This document shows positions 22,869-23,901 of a stretch of 64,000 nucleotides of DNA, in pieces. The notes below the pieces were generated by a model. That model did no database searches. It was not told the origin of the DNA and saw nothing but the letters and a program-made list of their open reading frames with translations. Positions within the stretch are counted from its first letter, which is position 1. Each line of letters opens with the position of its first letter. The translations under genes were made by a program, and so were the position numbers. The stretch is from Klebsiella phage vB_KpnP_Tribble_ER49: the sequence record PP738785.1, one strand, 5' to 3'.

Positions 22869-23705
22869 TTACTTAACGGGTACAAAAGGTGTAGCAGCGC
22901 CTGGAATCATTGTGGTAGGCAATACACCGTTCCACTTGTTGATTGCTTCCAGTTCCATTACACCAGGGTTTTCACGCAGCGCATCACCGCGTAATTTGAT
23001 GGCATCAGCTTCTGCTTTCGCTTTCAGCACCACAGCATCCGCTTCGCCACGAGCTTGCTCACGAGCCATGTTTGCTTCAGCAATACGTTGCTGCACTTCC
23101 TGCTCGCGTTGCAGTGTCTTTTGAGTAGCTTCAACTTTAGCGTTAATAGCACGCTTGACGTTATCCGGGTATTCAGGAGCACCTACCCAGGAAATTGCCA
23201 TAATGTCGATACCGACTGGTTCCATCTCTTGTTTCACTGCATTAGCTACGCTGTCCAGCAGACGAGATTTACCACCATCAATAAACTTGTCAGTATTGAT
23301 GAGGTTACCCTGACGGTTCAGGATATCCGCAATACGTTGACGAAGGTCTTGATCGGTAATTTCATCCACACCTTTACGGTAGGTCTGGAAGATCGTTACA
23401 ACTTTGGTTGGATTAACCTTATAGCTGATCGCCAGCTGGTGTCCGATCTGAGTACCATCAGACAGCTGGAAATAAAACTTATCTTCATAAGTTTTCATCT
23501 GCTTGAAGGTTGGGAACGTGTACAGGTCTTCGTTCCAGCCGATCCAGTAACGGCCTACGCCTTTGACTTCTTGATCGACACCCTTCTCGTCACCGAGACG
23601 GTTAACGATGATACCCACGTTACCTGGTTCGACACGCTCATAGCAGCCTGTCAGCGAGGTCATTGCAACGACTGCCAGAATGCAGCCCATGATAAATTTA
23701 CGCAT
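22869..23705 (-). CDS. SPFH / band-7 (HflK/C-stomatin-prohibitin) domain lipoprotein
   Basis: Start refined to MRKFIMGC. Signal peptide with lipobox LTGC. Typical SPFH core. C-terminal Ala/Glu-rich helix (AEANMAREQARGEADAVVLKAKAEADAIKL). Confidence 0.8.
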   Translation of the reverse strand: MRKFIMGCILAVVAMTSLTGCYERVEPGNVGIIVNRLGDEKGVDQEVKGVGRYWIGWNEDLYTFPTFKQMKTYEDKFYFQLSDGTQIGHQLAISYKVNPTKVVTIFQTYRKGVDEITDQDLRQRIADILNRQGNLINTDKFIDGGKSRLLDSVANAVKQEMEPVGIDIMAISWVGAPEYPDNVKRAINAKVEATQKTLQREQEVQQRIAEANMAREQARGEADAVVLKAKAEADAIKLRGDALRENPGVMELEAINKWNGVLPTTMIPGAATPFVPVK

Positions 23706-23901
23706 GTTTGATCTTCTTTTTGATTTGACGATAAACGAAAGTGACCACCAGAGCAGGCCACACCAGAGCACCAGCAATGCCGATGATCACGAGGATGGTA
23801 TCTTTAGCTGATACCAATGAAGGCAATATGCCTCCATACAGGACACCTGACAGAAGTAAGATCACTACTCCATATAGGTATAGTTTCAGATATTTATTCA
23901 T
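23698..23901 (-). CDS. Small two-TM membrane protein, translationally coupled to the SPFH gene
   Basis: 67 aa with two hydrophobic helices and a basic C-terminus. Its stop overlaps the SPFH start. Confidence 0.5.
   Translation of the reverse strand: MNKYLKLYLYGVVILLLSGVLYGGILPSLVSAKDTILVIIGIAGALVWPALVVTFVYRQIKKKIKHA

Follow-up and report, generated by a model that had tools for sequence, protein, structure and literature searches.

A lipoprotein gene overlapped by a small membrane-protein gene

We analysed a window of 64,000 nucleotides (nt) from Klebsiella phage vB_KpnP_Tribble_ER49 (PP738785.1), in which two overlapping genes on the minus strand encode an SPFH/Band-7 lipoprotein and, directly upstream of it, a small protein with two transmembrane (TM) segments. 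An earlier sequence-only reading of this DNA had placed both open reading frames (ORFs) here and had credited the larger product with an SPFH domain, an LTGC lipobox and an Ala/Glu-rich C-terminal helix, all of which our analysis confirmed. The pair and its parts were assigned as follows.

22869..23705, minus strand: SPFH/Band-7 lipoprotein gene (ATG at 23705; 278 amino acids plus stop; homologue of N4 gp20; PHROG 200)
23643..23705, minus strand: predicted signal peptide II, residues 1-21, sequence read directly, with the lipobox L18-T19-G20-C21 at 23643-23654 and a helix predicted at residues 2-17
23166..23642, minus strand: SPFH alpha/beta domain, residues 22-180, starting 3-4 residues past the cysteine predicted to be lipidated, with no tether
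22971..23165, minus strand: long Ala/Glu/Gln/Lys/Arg-rich helix, residues 181-245 (~65 amino acids), a DSSP helix in the AlphaFold2 model and presumed cage-wall coiled coil
22917..22937, minus strand: C-terminal motif K257-W-N-G-V-L-P263, near-invariant (family consensus KW[DN]G.LP), in a low-confidence region of the model
23698..23901, minus strand: two-TM partner gene (67 amino acids; homologue of N4 gp19; PHROG 1130; product predicted N-in/C-in)
23797..23823, minus strand: loop motif P27-S-L-V-S-A-K-D-T35 of the partner, predicted periplasmic (family consensus P-x-L-[IV]-S-[AS]-x-[DS]-[TS]-x-x-V-x-x-G)
23698..23705, minus strand: overlap of partner stop and SPFH start, 8 nt, ATGCGTAA, with translational coupling

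The SPFH protein starts with MRKFIMGCILAVVAMTSLTGCYERVEPGNVG. Its predicted signal peptide, MRKFIMGCILAVVAMTSLTG followed by C, divides as MRK-FIMGCILAVVAMTS-LTG-C into a basic n-region, a hydrophobic core and a canonical lipobox, and Cys21 is followed by tyrosine at position +2 and glutamate at +3. A lipobox was accepted where an n-region and an h-region were accompanied by [LVI][ASTVI][GAS]C in the first ~35 residues; on this basis the N-terminus is that of a bacterial lipoprotein, a predicted substrate of Lgt, LspA and Lnt. The lipobox was kept in 162 of 168 close representatives. Within the whole window, the SPFH gene was the sole clean case, no second credible lipobox ORF being found on the plausible coding strand.

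The Pfam model Band_7 (PF01145) matched residues 24-206 with E=2.2e-22, its score of 80.4 bits lying well above the cut-off (23.6), and the PHROG 200 profile, labelled 'lipoprotein', matched with E=2.2e-95. In the AlphaFold2 model, which had a mean predicted local distance difference test score (pLDDT) of 75.5, a signal helix precedes strands and helices at residues 21-178 (pLDDT 75-92). Across homologues the domain opens with the conserved sequence C-x-x-V-[EP]-[PA]-G-x-V-G-[IV]. The long helix that follows consists to 63% of A, E, Q, K and R, compared with 28% in the SPFH domain, and this coiled-coil region aligned to the coiled coil of prohibitin-2. Beyond it, the KW[DN]G.LP motif was kept from N4-like phages to phages of Staphylococcus, Bacillus and Caulobacter: among 13 homologues from phages of Gram-negative and Gram-positive hosts, K257 and G260 were invariant and W258 and P263 nearly so.

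In the alignment of these 13 homologues, the length of the long helix (~212-232) changed mostly in steps of 11 residues, with 11 more in GAP31, Hena1 and SNUABM_12 and 11 fewer in phiE125, CcrBL10, A3R and PBS1. Such steps fit changes of cage-wall height in a hendecad register and, taken with the C-terminal motif, they fit a wall of helices standing side by side and closed by a cap.

The partner (MNKYLKLYLYGVVILLLSGVLYGGILPSLVSAKDTILVIIGIAGALVWPALVVTFVYRQIKKKIKHA) contains two hydrophobic segments separated by ~9 residues. With net charges of +2 (N-terminus), 0 (loop) and +5 (C-terminus), the positive-inside rule predicts that both termini lie in the cytoplasm and that the ~9-residue loop lies in the periplasm. 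The protein matched PHROG 1130 'membrane protein' (E=1.9e-18) and was 40.9% identical to N4 gp19; searches of Pfam (E<=0.01), NCBIfam and PADLOC returned no match. We aligned 26 partners drawn from N4-like, SSU5-like, lambdoid, Vequintavirinae, Pseudomonas, Stenotrophomonas and Burkholderia phages and from bacterial genomes (Dyella, Leptospira, Dependentiae and Bacteroidota). They shared a gap-free core of first TM segment, loop motif and second TM segment, in which Pro, Leu, Ser and Gly were almost invariant.

Three known kinds of small phage or bacterial membrane protein were tried for the partner and rejected. Besides lacking a Pfam match, it is, at 67 amino acids, too short for the OB fold of an NfeD-type partner, and neither divergent partners nor the N-terminal parts of five fusion proteins matched Pfam NfeD at E<=1. 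As to a holin, the window's partner matched no holin family and no endolysin lies near its gene; the best holin-like score, Phage_holin_10 with E=0.058 for the partner of phage GAP31, was below threshold, and the holins of N4 are gp62/gp63. A spanin pair likewise combines an inner-membrane protein with a lipoprotein from overlapping genes, but SPFH domains are not spanins, and the spanins of N4 are gp60/gp60a.

Conservation and fusion of the pair

The pair is encoded by phages, as the sequence-only reading had it. A 3-kb query from the window was 96.5% identical at the nucleotide level to Klebsiella phage vB_KpnP_P184 over the aligned 66% and also matched other ~76-kb Klebsiella podophages, and the SPFH protein was 99.6% identical to its homologue in Klebsiella phage P19-618 and 79.5% identical to those of N4-group coliphages. 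The direct homologues are gp19/gp20 of N4 and their Schitoviridae orthologues, which occupy the same position and show the same 8-nt start/stop overlap. For Shigella phage Moo19, RefSeq describes gp30 as 'similar to phage N4 gp19' (membrane protein) and gp31 as 'similar to phage N4 gp20, predicted HflC' (lipoprotein).

To describe how far the association of the two genes extends, we compiled a close set of 86 loci whose SPFH proteins were at least 62% identical, comprising N4-like phages, SSU5/pMT1-type phage-plasmids and lambdoid prophages of E. coli, Shigella and Salmonella. A two-TM ORF ended between -3 and +20 nt from the SPFH start in 85 of them, and at the lone exception only 210 nt of upstream sequence were present. 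These ORFs mostly encoded 55-78 amino acids, a few calls being extended upstream or disrupted. The window's two proteins match PHROG 200 and PHROG 1130 and adjoin each other, and an E. coli prophage partner also matched PHROG 1130 (4.5e-21). Homologous hairpin partners were furthermore found in the Vequintavirinae GAP31 (Cronobacter) and Hena1 (Erwinia), whose SPFH proteins are 47-60% identical, and in Pseudomonas phage PAN70 (SPFH 44%), Stenotrophomonas phage DLP6 (41%), Burkholderia phage phiE125 (36%) and the P2-like coliphage P88.

In the Vequintavirinae, the partner gene is located one gene further upstream of the SPFH gene. A conserved soluble ORF of 54-57 amino acids lies between the two (GAP31, locus L087, 1332-1496; Hena1, locus L098, 1290-1463), and a secreted, Cys-containing protein of 64-73 amino acids with a signal peptide is encoded after the SPFH gene (L087 2443-2637; L098 2383-2604). 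Both may be extra components in this subfamily.

A scan of bacteria with a profile from a 7-sequence alignment, restricted to one genome per species, returned 80 loci, of which 79 were analysable. The motif-bearing partner lay directly upstream of the SPFH gene in 60 of these, and carriers included Yersinia, Kluyvera, Pantoea, Pseudomonas, about 45 Dyella/Rhodanobacteraceae, Cupriavidus and Sutterella, as well as Leptospira, Dependentiae, Methylumidiphilus, Flavobacterium and Saprospirales. The exceptions, two enterobacterial ones apart, belonged mainly to a divergent Myxococcaceae/Bacteroidota clade with the mature N-terminus (V/I)PAGYRG(I/V). Two enterobacterial exceptions, on Shigella flexneri/E. 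coli chromosomes (L104 and L105, ~3200-3950), carry an IS1 element (InsA/InsB) exactly at the partner site; they were the only close relatives without a partner.

At the one Dyella locus that was checked for its neighbours (D. jiangningensis, L142), these encoded a BlaR1-type peptidase, hemerythrin and ribonucleotide reductase, and none was a phage gene. Since cellular copies occur in such a non-phage context, the module is not intrinsically viral. Nearly all Dyella species in the sample carried it, some genomes twice (for example D. marensis, L132 and L141), and it may represent a core envelope function in the Rhodanobacteraceae.

An HMMER search of 1.84 billion cluster representatives yielded 2,817 relatives at E<=1e-3. 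These are clusters at 50% identity in a library of metagenome scale, and no two of the best 150 reached 50% identity. Of these 150, at least 17 were single ORFs of 322-392 amino acids in which partner and SPFH protein are fused, with the layout of a two-TM partner carrying the loop motif, a linker, a signal-peptide-like segment with a lipobox and the SPFH region. A further fusion (P0066, 347 amino acids) was found in an SSU5-like element. The ~80 extra N-terminal positions of the PHROG 200 profile fit the inclusion of fused members. Together, synteny, the loop motif and the fusions establish the upstream protein, which the sequence-only reading had noted for its overlap with the SPFH start, as a real partner. 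On these sequence comparisons, partner and SPFH protein are a conserved two-gene module that exists in split and fused forms, and the pair recurs in hundreds of phages and prophages and in some bacteria; SPFH homologues alone were found in 734 of 50,697 phage genome records.

Among Klebsiella phages, the two halves of the module differed in their relationships. The SPFH protein of P19-618 (L001) is nearly identical to the window's, as stated above, and the N-terminal half of its partner is different; at two other loci (L012 and L013), the partner shows 1-2 differences over its 67 residues, and the identity of the SPFH protein is only 71%. A comparison of these three loci with 22869-23901 thus places a recombination breakpoint inside the module, and from these sequences the partner and SPFH alleles appear to be interchangeable among Klebsiella N4-like phages.

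The feature is less novel than the sequence-only reading implied, as the pair corresponds to N4 gp19/gp20, and SPFH genes of phages were listed as early as 2006 for the T4-like RB43, 44RR and Aeh1. Genome papers have noted such genes since, with speculation on HflK/C and lysogeny or on secretion. The gene itself is thus known and already annotated. What our comparisons suggest as new is the architecture of a lipid-anchored SPFH protein with a non-NfeD two-TM partner, split or fused. Among open-access papers, we found no literature on the function of N4 gp19/gp20, the hairpin partner, the loop motif or the fusions. Public labels of SPFH homologues include 'serine protease', 'transposase', 'tail length tape measure protein' and 'hflC', which look like propagated mis-annotations. 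The label 'serine protease' probably derives from the SPFH-NfeD operon association and is unsupported; our analysis corrects this label as well as 'transposase' and 'tail length tape measure protein'.

Family placement, membrane location and possible function

SPFH proteins, including prohibitins, stomatins, flotillins and HflK/C, occur in all domains of life. The window's protein belongs to the Band_7 superfamily by its model score above the gathering threshold, by a modelled SPFH fold with a long helix and by a predicted anchor directly N-terminal to the domain. When its single sequence was searched against PDB sequences, the sole match was the prohibitin-2 coiled coil (9.6e-5). A profile of the 13 phage homologues matched PHB2 (5.3e-18), PHB1 (3.7e-16), HflC (7e-14) and HflK (1.4e-12), and more weakly erlin (~2e-9), QmcA (9e-9) and stomatin (3e-4 or weaker). 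The profile comparison that the sequence-only reading had proposed thus gave the order prohibitin, HflC/HflK, erlin, QmcA, stomatin, and the protein is not YqiK/flotillin-like. Foldseek searches with the AlphaFold2 model were headed by the full-length cage protomers of HflK/C (7vhq, 6e-14) and prohibitin (8rrh, 8e-14), with erlin, stomatin, QmcA-YbbJ (8z5g), flotillin and vault next; the probability was 1.00 for the HflK/C, prohibitin, erlin, stomatin, QmcA and flotillin protomers.

The sequence-only reading had described the protein as of HflK/C-stomatin-prohibitin type, which holds for the SPFH family and fails for HflK/HflC orthology. The score against TIGR01932 (HflC) was 21.1 bits with a cut-off of 134.4, and that against TIGR01933 (HflK) 16.4 bits with a cut-off of 159.4, so that the protein falls below each by more than 110 bits. 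Moreover, HflK and HflC are encoded by two side-by-side SPFH paralogues, and one Band_7 ORF is present here. With an identity of ~17-18% to prohibitin, the protein is accordingly prohibitin-like rather than a prohibitin orthologue. On profiles and the predicted fold, we conclude that it is a member of the prohibitin/HflKC branch of the superfamily and an orthologue of neither.

The comparison with known systems shows what is shared and what is not. E. coli HflK/HflC, the partners of FtsH, have in common with the phage protein the SPFH fold and the long coiled-coil wall; they face the periplasm from an inner-membrane anchor, a placement that we propose for the phage protein as well. Their anchor, however, is an N-terminal TM helix and that of the phage protein a predicted lipid, they comprise 334 and 419 amino acids compared with 278, and they are the products of a K/C gene pair, in contrast to one SPFH gene with a separate two-TM partner. 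Prohibitin PHB1/PHB2, the best match in sequence profiles, is of similar size (~272-299 amino acids), aligns directly over the coiled coil and the segment that follows, and has a topology equivalent to the one proposed here, the intermembrane space corresponding to the periplasm. Unlike the phage protein, it assembles as a hetero-oligomer from two paralogues, is anchored by an N-terminal TM or hydrophobic segment and lacks a small hairpin partner. Prohibitin is associated with the m-AAA protease in the mitochondrial inner membrane.

In SPFH-NfeD operons (QmcA-YbbJ, YqiK-YqiJ and P. horikoshii PH1511-PH1510), an SPFH gene is likewise coupled, through translation or within an operon, to the gene of a small membrane protein that is thought to aid assembly, and fused forms exist there, too. 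NfeD partners carry an OB-fold domain, whereas the phage partner has none, alone or in the fusions. QmcA and YqiK face the cytoplasm; the phage module, by contrast, would face the periplasm. Remote members of the family (23-29% identity, with the KW[DN]G motif) are Kayvirus MbpV/MbpS of Staphylococcus phage K/A3R and homologues in PBS1 and Enterococcus phages, where each SPFH gene is paired with that of a small membrane protein by a 1-nt overlap. The Kayvirus-type SPFH protein has a TM-helix anchor and no lipobox, its partner has one TM segment and lacks the P-x-L-[IV]-S-A loop motif, and the Kayvirus pair, unlike that of the window, is located within the lysis region between the endolysin gene lysK and the transglycosylase gene tgl.

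The signal peptide predicts export of the SPFH protein. Its location in the inner membrane had been assumed without evidence by the sequence-only reading, and four independent lines now support this indirectly. Of 168 enterobacterial cluster representatives, 156 had Asp (93), Tyr (61) or Trp (2) at position +2 and 5 had Glu, whereas Ser, Ala, Asn, Gln and Thr, which are typical of outer-membrane lipoproteins, occurred there in none. Asp in this place is the classical signal for Lol avoidance, and Tyr, Trp and Phe were reportedly also identified as retention signals in a genetic selection (Seydel et al. 1999). Furthermore, in the natural fusions the SPFH lipoprotein is joined to a two-TM domain that is integral to the membrane. 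In DLP6, in all members from Gram-positive phages and in many representatives, the lipobox is replaced by an N-terminal TM anchor that is not cleaved, and such orthologues cannot leave the cytoplasmic membrane. Finally, the SPFH domain begins 3 residues past the anchor, and it must therefore lie on whichever membrane holds that anchor. Taken together, these lines point to the outer leaflet of the inner membrane, on its periplasmic face, where the conserved partner is predicted to expose just ~9 residues.

We also considered when the pair is likely to be expressed. The gene order of N4 is gp15/16 (RNAPII), gp17, gp18 (P22 gp17-like exclusion), gp19, gp20, gp22 (endonuclease), gp24 (ATPase), gp25 and gp33/34 (rIIA/B). 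As the window keeps this order, its pair is placed between the RNAPII genes and the replication genes, and like N4 gp19/gp20 it precedes genes for a gp24-like ATPase, a gp25-like protein and rIIA/rIIB-like proteins. We take this block to be the middle-transcription region of N4 and not its virion region. Nothing essential differs between the two pairs; of the flanking accessory genes, the one upstream of the pair is gp18 in N4 and a 109-amino-acid ORF in the window. The replication-phase rather than virion context put forward in the sequence-only reading was thereby upheld. In lambdoid prophages, the pair is found among small uncharacterised genes on the pL side, between a cI-like repressor gene and the integrase gene, and in the P2-like phage P88 between cox and the replication endonuclease gene. 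Judged by gene order, every phage type that we examined thus carries it in a lytic transcription unit of the early or middle phase. On the minus strand around the pair, a scan for sigma-70-type (not N4-type) promoters and intrinsic terminators found neither a promoter nor a terminator of its own. As to a virion component, the only proteomic mention found was three peptides of a Vi01-like homologue, listed with the non-structural contaminants, and a structural role, which would have told against the sequence-only reading, gained no support.

By analogy with solved SPFH assemblies, the pair probably makes up a cage-like compartment that sits against the inner membrane of the host, on its outer face. 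From its sequence, the 67-residue protein would insert as a helical hairpin, with cytoplasmic ends and the short conserved loop in the periplasm, while the SPFH protein would undergo export, receive its lipid at Cys21 and stay in the outer leaflet, with its SPFH domain directly on the periplasmic face. Homology with the prohibitin, HflK/C, erlin and stomatin structures suggests that the protomers stand side by side in a closed homo-oligomeric ring or cage, the 65-residue helix forming the wall and the KW[DN]G.LP C-terminus the cap. Synteny, fusions and translational coupling suggest that the hairpin partner joins at roughly 1:1. The hairpins may line the rim and supply the TM 'pickets' that HflK/C carry in cis, with the loop contacting the membrane-proximal SPFH domain, and the assembly would close off part of the inner membrane of the host during the early or middle phase of infection. 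We consider it about evenly balanced whether the module is such a homo-oligomeric HflKC-like cage with a dedicated two-TM subunit, acting on the periplasmic face of the inner membrane in early or mid infection with FtsH as its likeliest client.

The weakest step is the client. The roles that the sequence-only reading had suggested, namely inhibition of FtsH, remodelling of inner-membrane microdomains and superinfection exclusion, are conjectural. Host FtsH is the most likely single candidate, put forward by analogy, and we regard it as tentative and rather doubtful. It was ranked first because prohibitin and HflK/C share the proposed topology and both enclose FtsH-type AAA proteases, and also because FtsH is universal across the broad host range of the family. 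In HflK/C structures (PDB 7wi3, 9cz2), FtsH lies inside a cage that faces the periplasm. Capture of FtsH by the phage cage would alter protein turnover, affecting cII, cIII and Xis in temperate carriers and membrane proteins of phage or host in lytic carriers. A wider proposition, that many phages build a split, minimal counterpart of the HflK/C nanocage with a lipid-anchored wall and a two-TM 'rim', which captures FtsH or seals the membrane against incoming DNA, seems unlikely to us; under it, the partner would constitute a second class of SPFH accessory protein beside NfeD. To our knowledge, HflK/C with FtsH is the main bacterial SPFH cage whose contents are established.

Several observations weigh against an HflKC-like cage acting on FtsH. 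The identity of the SPFH protein to HflK/C and prohibitin was only 14-18% in the Foldseek alignments and the equivalog cut-offs for HflK and HflC were missed, which makes the transfer of a client by homology weak. Residues 252-278 form a poorly modelled tail with pLDDT <50, so that the C-terminal 'cap' is a low-confidence element. The partner is lacking in some SPFH clades, namely those of phiEa21-4, SNUABM_12 and the Myxococcaceae/Bacteroidota, and the non-phage chromosomal copies, such as those of Dyella, speak for an ancestral function that is not phage-specific. Retention by Tyr at +2 is said to rest on artificial reporters. The 'HflK/C-like' protein PM0222 of a P. multocida prophage, a putative family member and the one prophage SPFH protein with experimental work behind it, was found in outer-membrane vesicles of the lysogen, which suits a role in the outer membrane or in lysogens better. 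Lastly, papers call the function of phage SPFH proteins unclear, and a description of an N4-like phage from 2026 states that why they are present 'remains unclear'.

A different possibility is that hairpin and lipoprotein screen the inner membrane, or tie up a component of the host, and thereby keep the DNA of a second phage from crossing, as do P22 SieA, HK97 gp15, the lipoprotein Ltp, and T4 Imm (itself a small two-TM protein) together with Sp. Such superinfection exclusion or entry block would suit expression from an early or middle operon, as for T4 imm and sp, the small membrane and lipoprotein components that are typical of exclusion systems, and the occurrence of the pair in prophages, phage-plasmids and lytic phages alike. 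In N4 and Moo19, moreover, the gene just upstream is annotated as P22 gp17-like superinfection exclusion, and Moo19 has a T4 Imm-like gene nearby; the exclusion-type gene just upstream of the pair is missing from the window, where the PHROG 9905 protein takes its place. T4 Imm/Sp, an early small two-TM inner-membrane protein with a periplasm-exposed protein, resembles the module in make-up but has no sequence or family relation to it, and exclusion proteins are not SPFH scaffolds. Neither protein matched an exclusion family in PADLOC or Pfam, lambdoid and P2-like pairs sit in lytic early operons and not in moron positions expressed by lysogens, many Dyella species carry the module in non-phage chromosomal contexts, and a cage-forming scaffold of ~280 amino acids is elaborate for the purpose. 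We hold exclusion to be quite unlikely. To a similar degree improbable is a role in membrane stabilisation or lysis timing, in which cage and partner would reinforce the inner membrane during a long, high-yield, lysis-inhibited infection and either keep up the proton-motive force or corral holins or rII-type proteins until lysis is due. It would agree with the frequency of the family in large virulent phages (N4-like, Vequintavirinae, the T4-like RB43, 44RR and Aeh1, Kayvirus and jumbo phages), with the holin-like character of the partner (small, two TM segments, N-in/C-in and a highly basic C-terminus) and with the general ties of cellular SPFH proteins to membrane integrity and stress. N4 itself shows lysis inhibition, and all its known rapid-lysis mutations affect membrane proteins; its lysis genes gp60-gp63, however, are located elsewhere, and gp19/gp20 are not named among the determinants of lysis or lysis inhibition. 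Neither in the window nor in N4 does the pair come close to the lysis cassette, nearness to lysis genes being confined to the Kayvirus pair between lysK and tgl, and holin families gave no match beyond the subthreshold score of the GAP31 partner.

The SPFH protein might also be sorted by the Lol system to the outer membrane or surface and shed in vesicles as a lysogenic conversion or virulence factor, with the small protein as just an export or assembly helper. PM0222 (25-35 kDa) speaks for this: it is made by the lysogen, stimulates TLR1/2, and its deletion attenuates virulence. The window's Tyr at +2 is, in addition, not the canonical Asp retention signal. On the other side stand the +2 residues of the enterobacterial homologues, with Asp in more than half and a typical outer-membrane residue in none, the fusions to an inner-membrane two-TM domain, the orthologues with uncleaved TM anchors, the uncertain family membership of PM0222, and the occurrence of the family in strictly lytic phages, for which lysogenic conversion is meaningless. 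We consider an outer-membrane lipoprotein very unlikely. Finally, the small ORF could encode an unrelated membrane protein or be no gene at all, since small hydrophobic ORFs are common in phage early regions and BLAST found the partner in 44 phage records compared with 734 for the SPFH protein. The low count reflects the insensitivity of searches with a 67-residue TM protein. Every annotated partner match adjoined an SPFH or 'lipoprotein' gene, the motif-bearing partner adjoined SPFH homologues down to 33-45% identity, and fused ORFs occurred in at least 17 divergent clusters. Conserved adjacency, shared motif and fusions thus exclude an incidental neighbourhood, which we find scarcely credible.

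As a compact two-part system that can be expressed from a plasmid, the module lends itself to asking how an SPFH cage nucleates and what it captures. If the client of the proposed cage is FtsH, phages would have a second route to FtsH control besides lambda cIII, which would also matter for how the many enterobacterial prophages and SSU5/P1-type phage-plasmids with the pair choose between lysis and lysogeny. If the module blocks DNA entry instead, it would represent a new exclusion mechanism.

Flanking genes and local mosaicism

The genes and other features around the module were assigned as follows; the gp24-like and gp25-like genes were identified by Pfam/PHROG matches and N4 synteny.

24220-24585, minus strand: HNH endonuclease gene (HNH_3, homing-type, 121 amino acids, Pfam 1.9e-16), two genes upstream of the module
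23894..24223, minus strand: ORF of 109 amino acids, soluble product, PHROG 9905, outside the conserved module
23894..23901, minus strand: second overlap, 8 nt, ATGAATAA, of the partner start with the stop of the 109-amino-acid ORF
22836-22862, minus strand: inverted repeat of 8 bp, AAACCTGG, 11 nt, CCAGGTTT, without a T-run, directly after the SPFH stop
22128-22835, minus strand: ORF of 235 amino acids, PHROG 11912, downstream of the SPFH gene
20825-21877: gp24-like AAA ATPase gene
19634-20815: gp25-like metallopeptidase/VWA protein gene
41752-42442, minus strand: cluster of six tRNA genes (Gln, Ser, Tyr, Pro, Asp, Asn)

The 109-amino-acid ORF, the partner gene and the SPFH gene form a translationally linked chain of three genes, in which both joins are 8-nt overlaps of the ATGnnTAA type. 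The position upstream of the partner is taken by varied genes in other phages. Models of known defence or exclusion systems in PADLOC-DB matched neither the module proteins nor the two proteins encoded beside them.

Megablast coverage of the 3-kb region by the closest relatives was just 61-66%, in 3 pieces, and the downstream ORFs differ among them, which indicates that the flanks of the module are mosaic. The 235-amino-acid ORF is missing at the matching site of the otherwise near-identical P19-618 (L001 12922-13376), which has ORFs of 62 and 79 amino acids. HNH genes at the flank of the module vary among related phages and are a probable contributor to this local mosaicism. The inverted repeat after the SPFH stop was not called by the terminator scan; it could serve in the processing or stability of RNA, or be a signal of the N4 type.

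Further downstream, the gp25-like metallopeptidase/VWA protein is called 'HNH endonuclease' in PHROGs and RefSeq, which looks like another propagated mis-annotation. Beyond its gene, large ORFs of rIIA/rIIB and polymerase size occupy the positions of the rIIA/rIIB and polymerase genes in N4.

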